Source of the DNA: Chlorobiales bacterium
Lineage (GTDB): Bacteria > Bacteroidota > Chlorobiia > Chlorobiales > Chlorobiaceae
Reading direction: 5' to 3'
Length of the DNA: 34,532 bases
NCBI GenBank assembly: GCA_022360415.1
Contig: JAKSDB010000421.1
Coordinates: 1-34,532 of the forward strand
In this document: piece by piece, positions 2 to 34,027 of the stretch
Position numbering within the stretch: the stretch's first letter is position 1
How the letters are laid out: every line of letters begins with the position of its first letter
Notes under the pieces: generated by a model
What the model was told of the DNA's origin: nothing
The model's database searches: none
Seen by the model: only the letters and a program-made list of their open reading frames with translations
Position numbers and translations under genes: made by a program

Positions 2-472
2 AGCCTTACCTCGGCCATCGGTATGGTTGGCAAGGAGTTCCCCGACCCCATAGGTCAGGAATTCAAAACCGTCTCCGATGAAATGGCTTTCGGCATCCCA
101 TTCAAAGACGCGATCGGCCAGCTCGCCGATCGCGTTAAAAGCAATGACGTCAGTTTCTTTGTCATCTCGCTCATGATCCAGCACGAAGCCGGCGGCAACC
201 TCACCGAACTACTCGACGGGCTGGCCACAACCATACGCAAACGCTTCAAACTGCGCGGAAAAATTCGCACGCTCTCAGCCGAAGGACGCTTATCTGCCTG
301 GTTGCTGGGCAGTATGCCATTTGTGCTCACCGGTGTCATCATGATCCTGAATCCCGACTATATTTCGGAGCTCTGGACCAGTCCCCTGGGCCAGAAATTC
401 ATCCTCATCGGCAGTGGGCTCATGGCCGCAGGCATCTTTGTGCTCAGCCGCATCATTCAGATCAAGGTTTAA
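2..472 (+). CDS. tadB: Tad pilus assembly protein TadB (T2SS F family), 5'-truncated by the window edge
   Basis: Frame is open from position 2. Motifs IQHEAGGNLTELLDGLATTIRKRFKLRGKIRTLSAEGRLSAWLL, C-terminal TM helices and an IIQIKV end are typical of TadB. Confidence 0.9.
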   Translation, partial: SLTSAIGMVGKEFPDPIGQEFKTVSDEMAFGIPFKDAIGQLADRVKSNDVSFFVISLMIQHEAGGNLTELLDGLATTIRKRFKLRGKIRTLSAEGRLSAWLLGSMPFVLTGVIMILNPDYISELWTSPLGQKFILIGSGLMAAGIFVLSRIIQIKV

Positions 473-489
473 CCCCAGCCACACCCACC

Positions 490-1431
490 ATGCAAGACAT
501 CCTGCAAATCCTGACTATCGTGCTCTCCGGGGCTGCTGTCACCTCTGTTGTGCTCGCATTGTACAATTGGGCGGTCGACAACAGCGCCCTTAAAAAACGT
601 TTCACCCAAATCGTTCGCCAAGGCGGGGACCCGGCCGACATCTCCTTGTCCAGGACTGCCAACACCCGCAAAGTAGCTCCCGTCATCGACATTCTTTCAA
701 AACTCTCGATCCCGGAAGAAGGGTGGCAAAGCTCCAGCGTTCAGATCAAGTTTTTGCAAGCCGGCATTCGCAATAAAAACGCACCTCAGTACTACTATGC
801 CGTTAAAACCCTTCTCACACTGGTGCTGTCGGTGGCGCTGGCGTTGTTTCTGTATTTATCCAAGTCCCAGCTCCCCTTCACTCATACCATGCTCTTTGTG
901 CTGCTCACAGCCGCCGCAGGATACTACCTGCCCGAAATCCTGCTGTACTTTATCACCCGAAAACGTGTCGAACGCATGCGCAACGGCCTACCCGACATGA
1001 TCGACCTCATGGTCATCTGCACCGAAGCGGGCATGGGTATCGACGCCGCCATTACGCGCATATCCCGCGAAATGGCCCGCACCAATCCCGAACTGGCCCA
1101 AGAGTTTTACCTCACAGTCCTCGAAATGCGTGCCGGCGCCAGCCGCCTCGAAGCCTTGCGCAACCTGGCACTGCGCTCACGCCTCGGTGACCTGGAAGAC
1201 CTCGTCTCCATGCTCGTACAGGCCGACAAATTCGGCACCGGCTTGGCCGACTCGTTGCGCGTGCATTCGGACGTGATGCGCTCACGCCGCACCCAGCGCG
1301 CCGAAGAGCTTGCCGCCAAAATCCCCGTCAAAATGACGCTGCCGCTCGGCTTGTTCATTTTCCCGGCACTCTTTATAGTTCTGCTGGGACCTGCCGTCAT
1401 TAAGATGATCCAAGTCTTCTCCAATAGATAA
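490..1431 (+). CDS. tadC: Tad pilus assembly protein TadC (T2SS F family)
   Basis: LPDMIDLMVICTEAGMGIDAAI, QADKFGTGLADSLRV and RAEELAAKIPVKMTLPLGLFIFPALFIVLLGPA; directly follows tadB. Confidence 0.92.
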   Translation: MQDILQILTIVLSGAAVTSVVLALYNWAVDNSALKKRFTQIVRQGGDPADISLSRTANTRKVAPVIDILSKLSIPEEGWQSSSVQIKFLQAGIRNKNAPQYYYAVKTLLTLVLSVALALFLYLSKSQLPFTHTMLFVLLTAAAGYYLPEILLYFITRKRVERMRNGLPDMIDLMVICTEAGMGIDAAITRISREMARTNPELAQEFYLTVLEMRAGASRLEALRNLALRSRLGDLEDLVSMLVQADKFGTGLADSLRVHSDVMRSRRTQRAEELAAKIPVKMTLPLGLFIFPALFIVLLGPAVIKMIQVFSNR

Positions 1432-1440
1432 GCCCAAGCC

Positions 1441-2145
1441 ATGAGCCTCAGCTATATGTTGCGTGTCCTCTGGGCACACTGGCCATGGTGGCTGGCCGGT
1501 GCGTGTGTAGGCCTGTGCCTGGTGCCCCTGGGCCGCTTCATCCCACACAAGGTTTTGCAGCGCGCCCAGGCCCCCCTGCATGCCTGGCAGGGCCCCGGCG
1601 GCGGCCTGGAGCAGTCCGTTCCACTTGCCAGGCGCATGTGGGTGCCTGTGGTCAACGCCTGTTTGTGGGCCTATGCGGCCGACACTGCCAGTTCCCCGGT
1701 ATTCTGGGCGGTACTGCTATGGGCCGGTTTGGCCAGCACTCTGGTGCTGCTCGCCCTCATTGACTGGGACACCACCCTGTTGCCGGACTGGATTGTCCTG
1801 CCGCTGGGGCTTGCGGGCCTCGTCAGCAGTTATGCCGGGTTTACTGCGCACAGCCTGCTCGTCAGTGCAGCGTCTGCAGCCGCAGTGCTGGGGCTTCTGG
1901 GTGGGCTTGCCTGGGTGTTCCGGCGCATCAAAGGCGAGAGTGGTATTGGCGGTGGTGACCTCAAACTACTGGCCGCACTGGCCACCTGGTGGGGCGTTGT
2001 CGACGTGCTTTACGTCGTGTTGTGGGCCAGTCTGGTTACCGTGGTCTGGAATTTGGTGTGGCGCCGTTACAAAGGCCTCGGCAGCCAAGCCGAATGGCCG
2101 TTTGGCCCAGCCATTGTGGTTGCTGCACTGGTATGGGGATTGTAG
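1441..2145 (+). CDS. Prepilin peptidase, peptidase family A24
   Basis: Polytopic membrane protein with both catalytic Asp motifs (LIDWDTTLLPD; GIGGGDLKLLAAL) and a C-terminal PFGPAI. It lacks the N-terminal CxxC zinc domain of PilD. Confidence 0.88.
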   Translation: MSLSYMLRVLWAHWPWWLAGACVGLCLVPLGRFIPHKVLQRAQAPLHAWQGPGGGLEQSVPLARRMWVPVVNACLWAYAADTASSPVFWAVLLWAGLASTLVLLALIDWDTTLLPDWIVLPLGLAGLVSSYAGFTAHSLLVSAASAAAVLGLLGGLAWVFRRIKGESGIGGGDLKLLAALATWWGVVDVLYVVLWASLVTVVWNLVWRRYKGLGSQAEWPFGPAIVVAALVWGL

Positions 2146-2186
2146 GTTTCCTTCAGGACGGCGATGATCAAGACATACCAAATTTA

Positions 2187-2328
2187 GGGCACCTCTATTA
2201 ATTTACTGCGCACCATGATTACTTCGTTGATCGGTGCTCGAAATCCTCATGTACTCCGTGTACACTCCGGTTTCTGCGCTCCGTTCGCCTCATACTCAAG
2301 GCGCTCGCGACAATTTATAGAGGTGCCC
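2187..2328. mobile_element. MITE-like non-autonomous element, 142 bp
   Basis: 17-bp terminal inverted repeats GGGCACCTCTATTAATT (2187-2203) and AATTTATAGAGGTGCCC (2312-2328) with one mismatch; flanked by TTTA direct repeats (2183-2186, 2329-2332); internal hairpin TGTAC-tccgt-GTACA; no ORF. Confidence 0.75.
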
Positions 2329-2329
2329 T

Positions 2330-3433
2330 TTATTCTATCAACTTAATTCTTCTTCCCCCTGATCCGGAAACAGAAGAGGCGTCAACAGTAACATTTGAAC
2401 CGTCTATCTTAAAGACATGAGAGACAATCCTTCCGTTTACTGTTACAGCACTATTGCCGTTATCAATCTGTACTTCATCTTTCGGCGAGTACAGAGTGCC
2501 ATTAACTACAACACCGCCCTCATCTATTTTGATATCTTTTCGCTCTGAATAAAGCAAGTCTCCATTGAACGTAACGTTTGGTGCTTCAATCTTTATTCTT
2601 CCTTTAGCAATTATGGAATGTGATAGAGTTACACCCGCTGCATCTTCCTTTATCTTTACATCTCCTGTAACATATATTGGTCCATCAGGCAGGGCGTCTA
2701 CATCTGATTGTGATTCAATTTTCAAACTTCCATTTATTGTCTGTGCCGCAGCCCTTTCAGTATCAACTAAACCAGGATCAAGCCCGATACTTGCCGCAAA
2801 ATCAGCAAGAGAGATATAATCCGCACTATCATCAAGATCTGGTATATCTATATTTCTTCCATCAAGTACAGAACCCTTTACTGCTGTCACTGCACCTTCA
2901 ACTGAAATATTCCGACCATCTGCCACAAATCTGTGATTTGTGTGAGCTCCACCTATGACAGTAATATTTCTGCCATCTATTATCAGCGGTTCACAACTAC
3001 TACCTGAGAATATAGCAGGACCTGAAGGGCCCGTAGTAATTTTCTCGGCAACCGCACGGGCGGGAACATCTGTTTCTGTATTGCCCCATATCGATGCGAA
3101 GAAATGCGGTACATTCTCTGCTGTAACAACAACCTGGATCTTCGTGTCATCTCCATTATAGGGTGTCGTTACTGTTATATTCGATCTTTCTGCCCCATTT
3201 AATTCGGCAAAATCTTTTGCTTTGCTTATCGCATTGCCTGCATTCGGCAAGTCCTGTGCACCCGCTAGCGCTCCAGCATCCGCAGCATTCTGCATTTCCG
3301 CTTTTTTCAAATGGACCATGGCTACATCTGCGGACAAAGCAGCAAAGCCCAGTAAAAACGCCATCGATAAAGCAAAGAGCACTGATACTGCTCCATCTTC
3401 ATTTTTTAACATCTGTTTTGCTAACCTTTTCAT
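2330..3433 (-). CDS. TadG/TadE-related pilus protein: N-terminal Tad domain plus C-terminal beta-helix-like repeat region
   Basis: NEDG|AVSVLFAL prepilin-like site plus TM helix; Tad motif EMQNAADAGALAGA; ARAVA motif; repeated DGRNI units; IKLIE end; strong SD AAGGGAGG upstream. Confidence 0.8.
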   Translation of the reverse strand: MKRLAKQMLKNEDGAVSVLFALSMAFLLGFAALSADVAMVHLKKAEMQNAADAGALAGAQDLPNAGNAISKAKDFAELNGAERSNITVTTPYNGDDTKIQVVVTAENVPHFFASIWGNTETDVPARAVAEKITTGPSGPAIFSGSSCEPLIIDGRNITVIGGAHTNHRFVADGRNISVEGAVTAVKGSVLDGRNIDIPDLDDSADYISLADFAASIGLDPGLVDTERAAAQTINGSLKIESQSDVDALPDGPIYVTGDVKIKEDAAGVTLSHSIIAKGRIKIEAPNVTFNGDLLYSERKDIKIDEGGVVVNGTLYSPKDEVQIDNGNSAVTVNGRIVSHVFKIDGSNVTVDASSVSGSGGRRIKLIE

Positions 3434-3783: not shown

Positions 3784-5955
3784 TTACGCTGATGATTTCA
3801 GTGGTGATGCATCGGCCTCTTCCCGCTCTTCATCAGAAAGTGCTATCAATCCTTGTTTAAAAAGCTGGATGAGCATGAATGTAGAGGCCTTTTGAATTGA
3901 AACGCCATTGATCTGCGTTCGTTTTTGTGAGAACAAGGAGATGACTTCGCTGATCGAGCGCATTCCGTTACATAAATCAAGGATTTCTTTTGATAGGGTA
4001 CTGAGTTGCCTGACGTGAATTTTTATGTCTCCATGCTCAATCTCCTTGAAGGCAATCGTGACTTTTTTTTGTTTGACAATATTGAGATCCTCTTTTTTGC
4101 GAAGGCAGTCGAGAAGTTTTTTGTAGTCTATATTCAATTCGGTGATAAAGACACTATCGGGTACGTATGGATAGGAGGAAAGAGAAAAAAGGTGACTGGC
4201 AGACGAGTTTTTTGTATCACATGCATTGTTATGCGTTTTGTTCGATTCAGTGCCTGATTCTGTCGCTTCGTCTGTATTTGCAGGGGCGTCTTTGTATGGG
4301 TGGAAAAAACCTTCGGTTTTGGTGAGTTCTGAAATGATAGCTTGATGAGAAGATAGCCGGGGAATATAGAATTCGTTGATGAAATCAAGAAAGTTATCGG
4401 CGAACTGTCTGTGGCAATAATAGGGTATTTCGTCGTCTATTGTTTCCTGAATATCTTTTTCAACACACCATTCTATCCAATGACGGCTGATTTTGAGCAT
4501 GTTGGCGGACTCCTGCTGCATGGCTACCGGCAGCCAGCGAAACCAGACTTGTAATGCCGTTACGAAATCACGGATTTGCTTGAACTCCTTGCGCTGAATG
4601 TTCGGGTTTGGAATCGAATAGAAGTCAGGAAAAACTTCGGGATGTTGTTCGATAAGGGTCAAGTCCTGATCATCGAAAGTCCACCCCTGGAACGACATTT
4701 CAGAAAAGATCTGGTCGAGCACAAGTTCATTTTTGTGTTTCCTGTAAAGCGGCGAGTCGGCAAGAGGCGCAAGAATACCGAGCTGCGGGTCGGCATTGTC
4801 AAATCGTAGCGAGTCGATAAAGAAGTTTACCGTACTGTTTAATTCTTCATCGGTTTCATCAGGAAAAGCGGTTATGAGCGAGACCGCCGTTTTGATACCC
4901 ATTTTATCGGCATGCGCAATTCTGTCAACGGCATCAGATAAATCAAGCTTCTTGTTGATTGCTTTTTGCATTCTCGTTGATGCACTTTCTATGCCGAAAA
5001 AAATCCCGTTACATCCGGCTTTTGCCATCAAAGAAAGTAAATCATTGTCTACACAGTCGACTCGGGCACTGCATCCCCAATAAAATTTCTCACCCGAGGC
5101 GATAAGTGTTTTGCAAAAAGCGTATACCTTTTCTTTGTCTGCTGCAAACATATCATGATCGAGACCTATATTATCTATCCCGAATCTGCTTTTAATGAAT
5201 CGCATTTGCTCAAGGATTGTTTCAGGGGATTTAAGTCTGAATCTTCTCCCGAAAAAATTACTGGTCGAACAAAAGGTGCAGCTATAGGGGCATCCTCGGC
5301 CGATTTCAAGCGATAGCGTTTTGTAGTTTTCAATATAGGGATCGAGATCATACGCGGGAACAGGAAGGCTGTCAAGGTCTATGACGGCATCTGCATCGGT
5401 ATTGCGAACGATATTGTCACCATTTCTGAAGGTCAGACCTTTAATGTCGTACAGATTCTCGATCTTGTTTTCCTGCATTGACTGCAAGAAAGAAACAAAG
5501 GTATATTCGGCTTCTCCTCTGAAAATGACATCAATCCCGGGAAATGCTTTCATTGTTGCGATATCAGTTGCCGAAGCTTGCGGTCCACCAAGTATTACCA
5601 TGGTGTTTGCATGTCTCTTTTTGTAGAGCATTGCCAGTCTGAGTGTCAAAGGGTATGAGCTGCAAATGGTGCTGAAGCCGATGATATCCGGCGAGGTCGT
5701 ACAGGTTTCGATATAATCTATGACAACATCTATAAACGTGTTTTTATTATTTGTTTTTTTTTCTTTGACGTATTCAATAAAAAGTTTGTTGAGATTGATA
5801 ATGGTGGTACCAATATTTTTGCACTCGCTCTGTGTTATCGACGCTAACCCGAGAACTCCAAGAGGGGCAGATATCTCTATTTGTTCTGAATCCCTTGCTG
5901 GCTCAGATGATCCTAAATCACTGATTGTAAGGGCGTTTATCAGGCAAACCTGCAT
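3784..5955 (-). CDS. Cobalamin-binding radical SAM enzyme (class B methyltransferase-like) with C-terminal PqqD/RRE-like domain; putative RiPP maturase
   Basis: B12-binding domain motifs (PLGVLGLAS, DIIGFSTICSSY, ILGGPQAS, RGEAE); CxxxCxxC in GRGCPYSCTFC (about 5269-5292); AGCNGIFFGIES; C-terminal LSTLSKEILDLCNGMRSISEV...LFKQGLI fits the PqqD fold. Start placed at ATG 5955 (MQVCLINA); the ORF track starts at 6024. Confidence 0.85.
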   Translation of the reverse strand: MQVCLINALTISDLGSSEPARDSEQIEISAPLGVLGLASITQSECKNIGTTIINLNKLFIEYVKEKKTNNKNTFIDVVIDYIETCTTSPDIIGFSTICSSYPLTLRLAMLYKKRHANTMVILGGPQASATDIATMKAFPGIDVIFRGEAEYTFVSFLQSMQENKIENLYDIKGLTFRNGDNIVRNTDADAVIDLDSLPVPAYDLDPYIENYKTLSLEIGRGCPYSCTFCSTSNFFGRRFRLKSPETILEQMRFIKSRFGIDNIGLDHDMFAADKEKVYAFCKTLIASGEKFYWGCSARVDCVDNDLLSLMAKAGCNGIFFGIESASTRMQKAINKKLDLSDAVDRIAHADKMGIKTAVSLITAFPDETDEELNSTVNFFIDSLRFDNADPQLGILAPLADSPLYRKHKNELVLDQIFSEMSFQGWTFDDQDLTLIEQHPEVFPDFYSIPNPNIQRKEFKQIRDFVTALQVWFRWLPVAMQQESANMLKISRHWIEWCVEKDIQETIDDEIPYYCHRQFADNFLDFINEFYIPRLSSHQAIISELTKTEGFFHPYKDAPANTDEATESGTESNKTHNNACDTKNSSASHLFSLSSYPYVPDSVFITELNIDYKKLLDCLRKKEDLNIVKQKKVTIAFKEIEHGDIKIHVRQLSTLSKEILDLCNGMRSISEVISLFSQKRTQINGVSIQKASTFMLIQLFKQGLIALSDEEREEADASPLKSSA

Positions 5956-6161
5956 TGTTGGTTCTGTTATTATGATGGAAGTGCAGCAAAGTAATGGAGG
6001 TACCCTTCCCTTATGATGATGCACTGCGTGTGATCCGGTATGGAGGCATATACTGTCCTGCTTCTCAATAAAGCACCATTGGTGGGGGGTGTATTCGGCT
6101 GTCCTTTTAAGGTATTGATGACCTGTGACTCAATATCAGGAGTACACATGAGATCGGCATC

Positions 6162-6200
6162 GGTATTCCGGGTCCTGAAGATATTGATACCCGGAATACC
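6162..6200. terminator. Stem-loop between the precursor-like gene and the rSAM gene (possible attenuator or mRNA stabiliser)
   Basis: Perfect 12-bp inverted repeat GGTATTCCGGGT (6162-6173) / ACCCGGAATACC (6189-6200); no clear U-tract. Confidence 0.5.
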
Positions 6201-6236
6201 TGCATTTGCGTGTGCTTGATTGAGTGAGTGATGAAG

Positions 6237-6575
6237 TTATTGGCCGCGCCACACCTGTTTGATGATGTCGTTCTTTTGGATGCTTTGATATTCCTGAATC
6301 CTGACCCGCTGTTGAATTCTTGAATTTATCCTTCTTACGGCTGCTCTTTCCCCGCTAATGGTATCGAGCAGCTCATTGGCTGTTTCAGCGGTAATTTTTT
6401 TGATTTCATCCTCCGACAAGTCCATTTCGGCAGGGATTTCAATCTGAAGTTCCCGTACTTCTTCGGGTTGTTCTACGACAACTTCTTCTCTTAACTCCTC
6501 AGGCGTAAGGTTCGACTCTTTTTCAATCCTTACTTCTTTGAGTTTTCTCGAGGATTTTTCGTCTTTTCTGGCCAT
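6237..6575 (-). CDS. Putative RiPP precursor peptide, 112 aa
   Basis: Strong SD (TAAGGAGG). Glu-rich leader with DLSEDEIKKI and ELLDTISG, resembling the ELSDEELxxVAGG motif of Nif11/NHLP leaders, then a 37-aa Arg/Gln/Ile-rich tail. Lies directly upstream of an RRE-bearing rSAM on the same strand. Confidence 0.6.
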   Translation of the reverse strand: MARKDEKSSRKLKEVRIEKESNLTPEELREEVVVEQPEEVRELQIEIPAEMDLSEDEIKKITAETANELLDTISGERAAVRRINSRIQQRVRIQEYQSIQKNDIIKQVWRGQ

Positions 6576-6941
6576 GATGCCTCCTTATAATGTTTGTTTG
6601 ACGAAGAACGTATTTGGTAATACAGATACTTAATCAATCCGGCAAGAGCTACTGATCTTCGACCTGCCATGAGCAAGTGCGCTTGCCTTCAGGATATCCT
6701 GCGTGTCAGCCGCGCTCGAATATCGCTGATAAAAAGAAGTACTTCTTGATACAGATGACGATAGGGGGTGAAGATAAATGATGGGCAGCAGCTTATTCGC
6801 TTTTTTTTCGGCACTCACCCTCGCTACCAAGGTAGATAAACGAGTGGAAAAAACAAAATACATACACTTAATCAATGCCTGGGAGATACAAGATTCATGT
6901 CTAAAAATTCACAAAAAAAACGATTATTTATCCAACAGCCC

Positions 6942-6971
6942 TTGCATTTACCCAAGCGATGCGTATATATT
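6942..6971 (+). promoter_or_regulatory. Candidate sigma70-type promoter of the eCIS operon
   Basis: TTGCAT (6942-6947), 18-bp spacer, TATATT (6966-6971); A-rich tract upstream. Confidence 0.45.
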
Positions 6972-6982
6972 GAGTAAGGGTG

Positions 6983-7075
6983 CAGTTCCCAAGCAGTACC
7001 TTCAGTTCCCTGCTGAAACCTCAGTATCCCAAGCAGTTCCCCAGTAGTTCCCGGTTTTATTCGAAGTATCCAGTC
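6983..7075 (+). repeat. Cluster of short degenerate direct repeats (CAGTTCCC / CAGTATCCC / CCCAAGCAGT) in the predicted eCIS 5' leader
   Basis: CAGTTCCC at 6983, 7003 and 7034; CAGTACC at 6994; CAGTATCCC at 7022; TAGTTCCC at 7045; AAGTATCC at 7064; CCCAAGCAGT at 6988 and 7028. Confidence 0.65.
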
Positions 7076-7184
7076 GTATTCAAGGGATTTTTCCTGTGGC
7101 TTATTGCGAATAGCACCCGGAGAAACCTGTCTATAACAAAACAGCATGTAAGTACAGCTATGTAGCACCTCTTGAACATGCCTT

Positions 7185-7826
7185 ATGATTTCTCACGCAT
7201 TGACAATAGTTCTCAACGAGCTCAACCACCATATCGAAAGCAGCTATGGCCCTTCAGCCCTTCCCCAGCCCGCAGCACTGGGCAATATCGCTGAAGGATT
7301 TCCAGGGACATCCAACGGAAGCGGGCTATCGAGAAACATGCTCTACTTTTCGGTTGTCCATATCATGGAGGAAAAAGCCCTGAAAAATCAGCCTAATTAT
7401 GTCATCAACAACGATGACAAAACCGCTTTATATCAAAATCCCCCCGTCTGTCTGAATTTCACCGTTCTTGTAACGGCGACCCATACCATCTATAGCGACG
7501 CTCTGCTCATGCTTTCGAGAACAATCAGGTTTTTCCAGTTTAAAAATGTGTTCACACCTGAAACCGTTGCACCGTCTTCTCTTACCCTCAACGCTCCGAA
7601 CAACGCCCTCGACCAACTTGAAACCTTCAAACTGGTTTTTGAGCTGTTTTCGGCTTCTATGGAAGAGATTCACCACTTATGGGGCACACTGGGCGGGAAG
7701 CAATATCCATTTGTACTCTATCGTTTCAGGGCACTTGATCTGAAATTCAGAACGGAACCTGAATCAGCACCGCTGATCTCGGAAGTCATCAATAACACGA
7801 AATATTTTTCATCAACAGACAAGTAG
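7185..7826 (+). CDS. DUF4255 / Afp16-Pvc16-like eCIS tail terminator (cap) protein
   Basis: MISHAL start; NPPVCLNFTV, IRFFQFKNVFT and HHLWGTLGGKQYPFVLY motifs; first gene of the eCIS operon. Confidence 0.85.
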   Translation: MISHALTIVLNELNHHIESSYGPSALPQPAALGNIAEGFPGTSNGSGLSRNMLYFSVVHIMEEKALKNQPNYVINNDDKTALYQNPPVCLNFTVLVTATHTIYSDALLMLSRTIRFFQFKNVFTPETVAPSSLTLNAPNNALDQLETFKLVFELFSASMEEIHHLWGTLGGKQYPFVLYRFRALDLKFRTEPESAPLISEVINNTKYFSSTDK

Positions 7827-7924
7827 CAGAATGATGACACATCAGACCTGACGGCAAATCAGCCGGCAATGAATCCATGCTCAAGATTTCTTAACTGCAT
7901 TCCTCAAACTAAACGGGAACCATC

Positions 7925-9361
7925 ATGCCAAAACCGTATAGAACCCCGGGTGTTTATGTCGAAGAAATACCGAAGCTGCCGCCGTCGATCGCAGCTGTAG
8001 AAACCGCCATTCCTGCATTTATCGGCTACACCGATAAAGCCGAAGACAAGACCGAAGACGACCTCAGGCGTAAACCGACCAGGATCAGTTCAATGGTCGA
8101 ATACGAAAAATATTTCGGTACGGCACAGAAGGAAACCGCTATCAGCGTCTCTATCAATGAAACACAGGATGAAACAGGAATAACAACATCACGCAAGGCA
8201 ATTGCATCCCTTGCTGAAAGCGCTCGGTCGAAGCACATCATGTACTACGCTCTACAGATGTTTTTCTTCAATGGTGGAGGCCCCTGCTATATTGTTTCGG
8301 CAGGAGAATATAAAACCCTTGGAGGCAGCCTGGTGCTCAATGAGCTCAAAGCAGGGCTTAATGCACTCGAAAAGGTTGATGAACCTACCATTCTTGTTTT
8401 CCCGGAAGCACAGTTTCTTCAGATTGCCAACTTCAAGGCAGTTCATGAAGCAGCACTCGATCAATGTGCGGAGAGAAAAGACCGCTTCGTTGTCATGGAC
8501 GTCCACGGCAACACCCTTTCATTATCCGATCCTCTTACAAACCTGCTCACCGCTGTCGGCAATTTCAGGCAAAACGGTACTGGTACCAATAACCTGAAAT
8601 ATGGTGCCGCTTATGCACCCAACATAGAAACCATACTTGACTTTGCCGTCGATGAAGCAAGCATCGATGTCGTTCATACCATCAATGGGACAGCTGAAGA
8701 AGCTGTCAAGCTCAACACATTGGTGGAAACAAACAATGATATCTATGAGCTTGCCAAAGCAGCGATCAGGGACTTGCCCTGCAAACTTCCTCCAAGCTCT
8801 TCCATCGCCGGCATTTACGCGTCCGTTGACAACAGCAGGGGCGTCTGGAAGGCTCCTGCCAACCTGAGCATCAACGGCGTCATCAAGCCTGCTATCGAGT
8901 ATTCCAACATCGAGCAGGACCAGATGAATATTGATGCAAATGCAGGAAAATCCGTCAACGCCATACGTAGTTTCACCGGCAAGGGAACACTCGTCTGGGG
9001 AAGCAGAACTCTTGCCGGCAACGATAATGAATGGCGTTACGTCAATGTCCGGAGGTTATTCATTTTCGTTGAGGAATCTGTCAAAAAAGCAACGGAACAG
9101 TTTGTTTTCGAACCCAATGATGCCAACACCTGGGTACAGGTGCAGGCCATGATCGAGAACTTCCTCACGGTGCTGTGGCGACAGGGTGCCCTTCAGGGTA
9201 TCAAGCCCGAACATGCATTTTATGTTGCGGTCGGTCTCGGAAAAACAATGACGGCGGTTGACATTCTTGAAGGCCGCATGATCATCGAAATCGGCATGGC
9301 TGCTGTCAGGCCCGCCGAGTTCATCATTCTGAGATTTTCACACAAGATGGTGGAATCATAA
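7925..9361 (+). CDS. Contractile tail sheath protein (Afp2/3/4-like)
   Basis: TPGVYVEEI...VETAIPAFIGYT; RGVWKAPAN; WRYVNVRR; FVFEPNDANTW; RPAEFIILRF. Confidence 0.96.
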   Translation: MPKPYRTPGVYVEEIPKLPPSIAAVETAIPAFIGYTDKAEDKTEDDLRRKPTRISSMVEYEKYFGTAQKETAISVSINETQDETGITTSRKAIASLAESARSKHIMYYALQMFFFNGGGPCYIVSAGEYKTLGGSLVLNELKAGLNALEKVDEPTILVFPEAQFLQIANFKAVHEAALDQCAERKDRFVVMDVHGNTLSLSDPLTNLLTAVGNFRQNGTGTNNLKYGAAYAPNIETILDFAVDEASIDVVHTINGTAEEAVKLNTLVETNNDIYELAKAAIRDLPCKLPPSSSIAGIYASVDNSRGVWKAPANLSINGVIKPAIEYSNIEQDQMNIDANAGKSVNAIRSFTGKGTLVWGSRTLAGNDNEWRYVNVRRLFIFVEESVKKATEQFVFEPNDANTWVQVQAMIENFLTVLWRQGALQGIKPEHAFYVAVGLGKTMTAVDILEGRMIIEIGMAAVRPAEFIILRFSHKMVES

Positions 9362-33450: not shown

Positions 33451-33897
33451 TTATGCCTTCCCCTCATTTTTTTTCCTCGACTGGAGCCGTTGATACCACT
33501 TCGTGTTTTCAACAGAAATCAGGCCCTCAATCCTTTCCACAAACATCGGAAATGGATCTTCGGCATCATAAGGCTCGGCTCTTGTCAGAAACAGATATTT
33601 CTCATGCTTCAATGACTCGCAGGTTGTCCTGTATTCAATCCAGTTCTCCTGAAACTGGTACAATGCGATAACGCCGGCAATCACGGTGATTACCACCCCC
33701 AGGGCACCTACGATCAGTCGTATAAAAAGCTCTCCCTGCGTCATATAAGCACTCAGAAAAGGTATCGAGGCTGCGGCAACAATTTCAATGATACGCAGCC
33801 TTTTGAACCAATGTTGATTCGTCAGGCTTTTTCGGTCGTACCAGTCGATCTGATCATCAACCCTTTTTTTCAAGTAGTCATCCTGAGCAAGCTCCAT
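33451..33897 (-). CDS. DUF4231 (SLATT-like) two-TM protein
   Basis: YLKKRVDDQIDWYDRKS..NQ.WFKRLR, two TM helices, FQENWIEYRTTCESLKHEKYLF, FVERIE.LIS.EN..W. SD GGGAGGT supports ATG 33897; the ORF track starts at 33915. Confidence 0.88.
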   Translation of the reverse strand: MELAQDDYLKKRVDDQIDWYDRKSLTNQHWFKRLRIIEIVAAASIPFLSAYMTQGELFIRLIVGALGVVITVIAGVIALYQFQENWIEYRTTCESLKHEKYLFLTRAEPYDAEDPFPMFVERIEGLISVENTKWYQRLQSRKKNEGKA

Positions 33898-34027
33898 GAT
33901 GCACACCTCCCTCATTTTCTGAAGACCTGTTGAACTCCGGCCTCATAAAGACGCAACTCGCACTCTCCAGCGCATTCCCGATATAACTCTGCGCCATGTC
34001 CGGCCAACCGGAATCGTCCTGTCCCGG

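Follow-up and report, generated by a model that had tools for sequence, protein, structure and literature searches.

A two-gene cassette from a Chlorobiales genome pairing a B12-dependent radical SAM enzyme with a putative leader-guided peptide substrate

What does a B12-dependent radical S-adenosylmethionine (SAM) enzyme act on when it is encoded beside a single small gene? The question is raised by a 34,532-nucleotide stretch of DNA from a Chlorobiales bacterium (assembly GCA_022360415.1, contig JAKSDB010000421.1), hereafter the window, in which a 723-residue enzyme of this kind stands next to a gene for a 112-residue protein. An initial annotation, made from the sequence, had read the two genes as an orphan pair making a peptide synthesized by the ribosome and modified after translation (RiPP) that would be multiply C-methylated and cationic. 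Our analysis makes it highly probable that the small gene and the enzyme are an enzyme-substrate pair, and the enzyme quite likely C-methylates the precursor. For the specific reading that we favor, repeated beta-methylation of Val and Ile in the variable tail, we estimate a probability of about 0.5.

The enzyme is a class B (B12-dependent) radical SAM protein, with an N-terminal cobalamin-binding domain and an intact Fe-S motif, as had been proposed. PF02310 and PF04055 both score above their Pfam cut-offs, and the Cys residues of the CxxxCxxC motif (C222, C226 and C229) are invariant in 101 of 101 aligned homologues. This alignment comprises the query and 100 of the 120 proteins listed (179 matched at E ≤ 1e-5 among 3,599 candidates, with residues 380-723 as query), with partial and some other rows omitted. 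The cassette and the parts of the enzyme are located as follows.

3784 to 6624, minus strand: whole two-gene cassette, 2.85 kb, G+C 0.43 (genome 0.49); the stretch of DNA similarity to the sister-species locus L001 has the same limits.
3784 to 5955, minus strand: B12-dependent radical SAM enzyme, 723 residues, ApyD-related clade (Pfam, NCBIfam, orthologue, structure model).
5491 to 5700, minus strand: cobalamin-binding domain, PF02310 (38.5 bits versus a cut-off of 32.1).
4822 to 5307, minus strand: radical SAM domain with CX3CX2C (C222/C226/C229 at 5292-5269).
3820 to 4188, minus strand: C-terminal RiPP recognition element (RRE), residues 590-712 (fold search, structure model, complex model).

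The start codon is most likely the ATG at 5955, judging from three comparisons: the L001 orthologue begins at the same Met, a 723-residue member is annotated as Cphamn1_0233 in Chlorobium phaeobacteroides BS1, and the DNA upstream of 5955 shows insertions and deletions relative to L001. A GTG start at 6024 was rejected on these grounds. Relative to L001, the enzyme gene carries 164 synonymous and 142 non-synonymous codon changes. Named relatives among the matches listed are from Methanosarcina sp. UBA5, Pyrinomonadaceae, Blastocatellia, and Poribacteria. An AlphaFold2 model (predicted local distance difference test score, pLDDT, 87; predicted template modelling score 0.87) matches OxsB, AprD4, MgmA, CysS, TsrM, and TokK at 13-17% identity; Ser99 aligns where CysS and TokK have Trp, from which no conclusion is drawn. 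The best NCBIfam model is that of ApyD, at 322 bits, with the next model at 147, and ApyD is the top model for all seven family enzymes scanned (322-369 bits). Among B12 radical SAM enzymes, the window enzyme most likely descends, by sequence, from the side on which ApyD lies.

The small gene is as initially described, with a ribosome-binding site, a 75-residue acidic leader (22 Asp/Glu versus 12 Lys/Arg in residues 1-75) and a 37-residue tail that contains 7 Arg, 7 Gln, 6 Ile, and 3 Val (Val and Ile make up 9/37), lacks Cys and Leu, and ends in WRGQ.

6580 to 6587, minus strand: Shine-Dalgarno sequence TAAGGAGG, read from the sequence, 4 nt before the ATG and mostly preserved in L001.
6237 to 6575, minus strand: precursor peptide gene, 112 residues (open reading frame, ORF; synonymous excess versus L001; top match of the held-out leader profile).
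6465 to 6575, minus strand: acidic N-terminal extension, residues 1-37, present in the window's subfamily and absent from most family precursors.
6351 to 6455, minus strand: family-conserved leader, residues 41-75, of which residues 64-75 are a predicted extra beta-strand on the RRE.
6240 to 6350, minus strand: putative core, 37 residues, net charge +6; the exact start (cleavage site) is not fixed.

The precursor gene differs from its L001 orthologue by 26 synonymous and 16 non-synonymous codons (11 versus 3 in the leader, 9 versus 4 in the core), a synonymous excess that shows it to be under coding constraint. Pfam returns no family for the window precursor at E ≤ 0.01. The core is colinear with those of its relatives at Ile/Val, Arg, and a near-terminal Trp-Arg. 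The five closest precursors align nearly gap-free across it, with two Ala, three Ile, four Arg, and a Trp invariant (Trp109-Arg110 in all five), and the subfamily tail shows a three-residue hydrophobic repeat.

The pair is no orphan; related cassettes number in the hundreds. A metagenome scan gave at least 547 confirmed relatives among 600 stretches, and the best 80 loci, partly redundant and many of them short, were kept. A leader profile built from 42 upstream ORFs, chosen by eye in the metagenome loci, scores at least 20 bits in 73 of the 80, always on the strand of the enzyme and no more than 700 bp upstream, while the best other match among 11,713 six-frame segments reaches 5.9 bits. Five of the seven loci without a match have less than 150 bp of upstream DNA; in the remaining two, L011 and L037, we take the upstream ORFs to be transposase-like. 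Because the profile was derived from the loci under test, the test was repeated with profiles that exclude leaders at least 40% identical, and 41 of 42 precursors still reach at least 10 bits. When scored with the profile held out for it, the window precursor comes first among 48,666 genome segments (24.5 bits, next 8.9). The expectation that homologous enzymes would have a small neighbor with a conserved leader and a variable core is therefore borne out, and the two-gene family is real and widespread. An RRE fused to the enzyme and an adjacent short gene of this design are two of the features of an RRE-dependent RiPP system.

A 64-row profile found 236 clusters (50% identity) at E ≤ 1e-3; among the 150 listed, 138 are of 140 residues or fewer, and 12 long multi-stretch proteins were dropped. 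A Methanosarcina member occurs in 1 of 10 clusters looked up, and several loci carry tandem precursor copies. No NCBIfam model fits the 42 family precursors (searched at E ≤ 1 for an NHLP/Nif11-type leader), the ESM Atlas gave no usable match to the family precursor P0128, and no conserved cleavage motif was found after the leader. The initial annotation did not recognize the class, and neither a published class nor a description of the family was found in full-text literature, in which subscription papers are scarcely covered; RRE-Finder or radical SAM datasets may list the enzymes as uncharacterized. The accession numbers and locus tags of the BS1 proteins are likewise not mentioned there or in the accessible part of the supplement of PMC10288494. 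One candidate was not counted as family. At L006 (genome G014, contig C26), a second paralogue, an ApyD-related enzyme of 697 residues at 31% identity (1006-3363, minus strand), has an upstream 66-residue ORF that is similar by eye and scores 2.3 bits held out; the two are probably, from their sequences, a sister family with its own leader.

How would the enzyme hold its substrate? A PqqD-like C-terminal domain had been claimed, and fold searches confirm it as an RRE, to which Pfam is blind in the window copy: PF05402 gives no match for the window's own domain, and among 53 aligned family domains it finds 47 at E ≤ 10, the best at 3e-5. A sequence search of the RRE alignment against the PDB returned PqqD as the sole, weak match (E 1.2). 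Folded alone from the 53 sequences, the domain reaches pLDDT 90, and Foldseek matches the model to TglHI, PqqD, TbtB, TruD, TigE, and TbiB1. VIA-align gives Z ≥ 8 for 9 of 48,161 chains, among them MibB (9.5; root-mean-square deviation 2.3, 83 aligned), TbtB (8.8), TbiB1 (8.4; deviation 3.0, 84/84), a lasso B1 protein (8.3), TigE (8.2), and PbtF (8.2); NovN ranks fourth. Because these matches span RiPP RREs and the protein methyltransferase Rv2067c, the modelled domain is best called an RRE-type winged helix, typical of RiPP enzymes and not confined to them. A TQQPWP tail is conserved after the RRE in a large clade of family enzymes and is absent from the window enzyme.

Modelling of the complex, which the initial annotation had suggested, supports leader docking and leaves the core without confident contacts. 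Enzyme residues 1-712 and precursor residues 38-92 score 0.74 in three runs, and the best of three controls scores 0.00. Of solved complexes, 116 of 157 attain this mark, and of mismatched pairs, 2 of 215; with custom alignments, these counts are approximate. The runs share at least 57% of their contacts, with a partner pLDDT of at least 63, and nearly all confident contacts fall within the RRE (588-703). There, the strand 644-652 is joined in antiparallel orientation by precursor residues 64-75, which are thus predicted to extend the RRE sheet; precursor residues 41-48 contribute contacts in the model. We take this to be the canonical RRE-leader geometry. The modelled contacts stop at G75, where the split between leader and core had been placed. 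The 17 core residues in the model make no confident contacts, and the model is silent on the target residue.

Which residues are modified must then be sought in the cores. With the family enzymes as background, and counts over the 138 clusters, the cores are 26% Val plus Ile versus 12.5% (2.1-fold; Val 2.8-fold). Lys is enriched 2.5-fold, Gln 1.4-fold, and Arg 1.2-fold, Thr and Pro are not enriched, and Leu (0.33-fold), aromatics (0.2-fold), and Cys (0.18-fold) are depleted. Among 134 cores, Val is present in 128, Arg in 108, Gln in 79, Phe in 28, Trp in 17, and Tyr in 13. Runs of at least four Val/Ile occur in 41 of them versus 15.5 ± 2.9 in shuffles, and 89 tails are net positive. Loci chosen by the enzyme alone agree with this picture (14% Val, 10% Ile, 2.6% Leu). 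The cores vary widely and group by enzyme clade in a quick tree of 83 rows, in which kin share labels, so that co-evolution is not proven thereby.

Gln, initially named among the possible targets, is not supported as a main one, since none of the core Gln is constant across the five closest precursors and only 79 of 134 cores contain one. Because Gln is not conserved, beta-methylation of Val/Ile is the likeliest outcome. Residues branched at the beta-carbon are preferred over those branched at the gamma-carbon, as would be expected if a C-beta methylase did the selecting, and this matches the Val/Ile cores of clavusporin relatives. Within the window's subfamily, the four invariant Arg make Arg a candidate target, at an enrichment of only 1.2-fold family-wide.

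We therefore propose a self-contained two-gene cassette in which the RRE of the enzyme would bind the conserved leader of the precursor, and the B12 radical SAM domains would methylate the variable tail on the C-beta of its Ile and Val residues, probably with several methyl groups in all. From class B chemistry, a 5'-deoxyadenosyl radical would abstract a side-chain hydrogen and methylcobalamin would donate the methyl, giving tert-leucine and beta-methyl-isoleucine. We infer both the multiple C-methylation and the cationic nature of the mature product. More tentatively, a host protease encoded outside the cassette might release an amphipathic, mostly cationic peptide, which might act at membranes or surfaces as clavusporins do.

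By analogy, the cassette is most likely a variant of the B12-radical-SAM C-methylated RiPPs that works like clavusporin or polytheonamide C-methylation. MpcBC places as many as 8 methyls on the beta-carbons of Val, Ile, Pro, and Thr, and in the cores of its short relatives Val/Ile alternate or follow one another (PMC10849626). The clavusporin mpc system (MpcA/MpcBC) shares with the window Val/Ile-rich, partly cationic cores and a B12 radical SAM enzyme whose dependence on the leader is predicted here, with the reaction probably, and a surfactant-like use possibly, in common. In contrast, the motif of MpcB is CX7CX2C and the enzyme depends on a separate DUF5825 protein, whereas the window enzyme has CX3CX2C and a fused RRE; the mpc cluster includes an S9 peptidase and a transporter and was found only in Actinobacteria, whereas the window family has two genes and occurs in Chlorobium, Acidobacteria, and Methanosarcina. 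Neither a DUF5825 partner, an S9 peptidase, nor a major facilitator superfamily transporter is adjacent to the cassette in the window, in L001, or in the survey of 82 loci. MpcB presumably falls under TIGR03975. The proteusin enzymes PoyB/PoyC (PMC11285071) share the beta-methylation of Val/Ile (proposed here) by a B12 radical SAM enzyme and a long leader-core precursor; PoyC has CX7CX2C. The parallel to PoyB/PoyC drawn at the outset thus stands for the likely reaction and fails for descent, the window enzyme being closest to ApyD and having CX3CX2C. Proteusin precursors carry nitrile-hydratase-like (NHLP/Nif11-type) leaders and work with epimerases. No such leader was matched here by Pfam in the window precursor or by NCBIfam in the 42 precursors, and there is no second conserved enzyme.

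ApyD is an RRE-bearing C-beta methylase that places one methyl on a penultimate Tyr, in a class for which a multinuclear non-heme iron-dependent oxidase (MNIO, DUF692) is called class-defining (PMC10635010). The window enzyme shares with aminopyruvatide ApyD/ApyA (PMC10635010, PMC11117315; NF050148) the one-protein arrangement of B12-binding, radical SAM, and RRE domains, the best-scoring model and, as proposed here, a short ribosomal peptide as substrate. However, its 322 bits are far under the equivalog cut-off of 750 (NF050148), no MNIO, partner, P450, or methyltransferase is near the cassette, and the precursor ends in WRGQ and lacks the C-terminal aromatic-Asp motif of ApyA (PMC11117315). 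ApyA leaders, in the supplement of the same paper, bear only a vague resemblance, by eye, to the window leader. PbsB, of biphenomycin type, is another B12 radical SAM enzyme acting on a RiPP (as proposed here), and cross-links ortho-tyrosines after MNIO and arginase steps (PMC12257519); the corresponding genes and motifs are absent from the window cassette. Judged by their defining features in sequence, the family belongs to none of the aminopyruvatide, clavusporin, and proteusin classes.

A number of points weigh against repeated Val/Ile methylation of a released peptide. Since ApyD places a single methyl, on Tyr, descent lends no support to iteration or aliphatic targets, and the known iterative Val/Ile methylases PoyC and MpcB have CX7CX2C, unlike the window enzyme, which also scores 111.5 versus a cut-off of 281.85 on the RiPP C-methyltransferase model TIGR03975. 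The top VIA-align row (Z 9.8) is Rv2067c, a protein lysine methyltransferase, and the fold also serves non-RiPP substrates. Because the docking shows the canonical geometry, the complex score may reflect likeness to solved RRE-leader complexes. The cassette has no protease or exporter gene. Some core columns entered the 64-row (A4) profile and tilt it towards Val-rich tails, so that the Val/Ile excess in the clusters is partly due to this bias, and the 138 clusters are known without genomic context. The Val/Ile bias could instead reflect a beta-strand or self-assembly function. Finally, six loci have short Cys-led cores and nine have acidic cores, mostly in tandem pairs, both with almost no Val/Ile, and the eight complete enzymes of the acidic-core subclade (530-549 residues) lack an RRE, with none encoded nearby; because of these subclades, neither the Val/Ile core nor the RRE is universal.

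The RRE-less loci are L033, L045, L047, L050, L052, L065, L067, and L083 (L053 is partial), and in most of them the precursors have an extra N-terminal segment. Cys-led-core precursors with a twin-arginine-like N-terminus occur at L066 4568-4876, L071 1284-1604, and L075 573-875; that of L071 has a weak TIGR01409 match (E 0.028), which hints at export by the twin-arginine pathway.

At long odds, a bolder proposal would be a new RiPP class across bacteria and methanogenic archaea, in which a leader-guided enzyme related to PoyC/MpcB by shared domains only would carry out novel chemistry on hypervariable Val/Ile-rich tails (for example, repeated alpha-methylation to peptaibol-like residues, or aliphatic cross-links); some subclades would have turned it to cores that are acidic or Cys-led, in one case following RRE loss. 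Other radical chemistry on the tail, such as alpha-methylation, cross-linking, desaturation, or cyclopropane formation on Val/Ile, is improbable. Cross-linking (PbsB, PMC12257519) and ring contraction are indeed known from B12 radical SAM enzymes, the top fold and sequence matches include OxsB and AprD4, and the hydrophobic repeat of the subfamily tail would suit it; however, the OxsB/AprD4 matches, at 17% identity, reflect shared domains, the closest characterized relative methylates, and PbsB requires phenolic residues, which most family cores lack.

It is doubtful that the small protein is never cut and serves as a modified protein or a bound enzyme partner, with no released peptide. The lack of a conserved protease or transporter across 82 loci, of PF13650 in the window genome, and of a cleavage motif after the leader would fit, as would winged-helix domains in protein methyltransferases, but a conserved leader with a hypervariable tail, tandem precursors, and a convergent retropepsin-like gene in five loci fit a RiPP, and an uncut protein is in any case compatible with methylation. 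Equally doubtful is that, in the manner of ApyD, one aromatic residue close to the C-terminus is methylated once, which here would be Trp109: the ApyD model leads for 7/7 enzymes, ApyD itself modifies the penultimate Tyr (PMC10635010), and the five closest precursors all keep Trp109-Arg110, yet aromatics are 5-fold depleted across the family and the idea could apply to the window's subfamily only. Mmp10 is an Arg methylase. C-methylation of Arg after its manner, of Lys, or of Gln as with the glutamine methylase of methyl-coenzyme M reductase is unlikely too, for although four Arg are invariant in the subfamily, Lys is enriched 2.5-fold, 108 of 134 cores contain Arg, and MgmA is among the top solved-structure matches, Arg (1.2-fold) and Gln (1.4-fold) are little enriched, no core Gln is invariant, and TIGR04014 gives 115 versus a cut-off of 360.

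Repeated Val/Ile methylation remains our preferred reading, and we turn to the genes around the cassettes. Clustering of neighboring ORFs of at least 100 residues in 82 loci found no second enzyme, protease, or transporter common to the family, which agrees with the minimal two-gene unit first described; recurrent neighbors (13-16 loci) belong nearly all to a single tight clade. Just downstream of the enzyme, and convergent with it, lies a retropepsin-like aspartyl protease gene in L027, L051, L057, L077, and L080, which have Val/Ile-run cores and of which two share identical enzymes. Four of the five genes were scanned, all PF13650, and the gene is a candidate leader peptidase for one subclade; it was not found in the window genome (0/1; 89% complete). 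At L058, a second B12 radical SAM enzyme above the TIGR03975 cut-off (651 bits; 6701-8617, minus strand) lies about 2 kb from the cassette.

DNA similarity to L001 is confined to 3784-6624, and the flanks there are unrelated genes; the L001 copy has a G+C of 0.44 versus 0.49-0.52 in its flanks. Because the similarity boundaries match the cassette and its composition departs from the surroundings in both genomes, we conclude that the two genes form a mobile unit, which has a different place in each of the two species. A 112-bp stretch outside it (window 2219-2330, L001 13525-13636; 83% identical) is possibly a dispersed repeat. The closest named relative is a Chlorobium phaeobacteroides metagenome-assembled genome (80% identical), and cultured C. 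phaeobacteroides BS1 carries the pair as UniProt B3EKM4 and B3EKM5. A single-protein search of genome contigs returned two loci, one unrelated. Of 60 relatives searched, one (G014) has a full-length enzyme orthologue and G017 only a distant 33% match, and the leader profile matches 2 of 401 genomes of the phylum, the window genome among them. Plasmid matches H3 and H5 (2 of 5 examined) were placed outside the family, at 30-33% identity and in different gene contexts. With 13 B12-binding-domain matches in the window genome, cobalamin use appears normal for the host. A promoter and terminator scan was at chance (7 and 6 sites versus 7.4 and 4.2 in shuffles).

The immediate neighbors of the cassette are a Tad-like gene and Pvc16. 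Window 23-3433 encodes Tad/Flp pilus proteins by Pfam (two T2SSF proteins, a prepilin peptidase, and a TadE/G-like protein). On the other side, divergent from the cassette, a complete extracellular contractile injection system (eCIS) locus (7185-33135, plus strand; Pfam) encodes Pvc16, a sheath, two tubes, a CIS tube, a VgrG-like spike, PAAR, gp25, a baseplate J-like protein, a tape measure, an eCIS-core protein of 1394 residues, an AAA ATPase, and ORFs of 1126 and 1235 residues without a Pfam match. A link to this system was rejected from the limits of L001 similarity and its unrelated flanks; a search with the window's sheath gene did not find it in G014 or G017 (0/2 same-genus genomes), and six injection-system genes had no match in any relative locus retrieved. 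Window 33451-33915 (minus strand) encodes a SLATT/DUF4231 protein with two membrane helices, a possible defense-associated effector.

Methylation of unactivated peptide carbons is hard chemistry for which few enzymes are known, and the likeliest chemistry here is already among the known kinds. Neither Pfam nor NCBIfam has a model for the precursors of the family, and the extra genes used by mining tools are missing from it. The family extends to Methanosarcina, in which RiPPs are little studied. If our reading is true, a single-protein, leader-guided, core-tolerant enzyme would be a simple engineering tool for peptides containing tert-leucine and beta-methyl-isoleucine.

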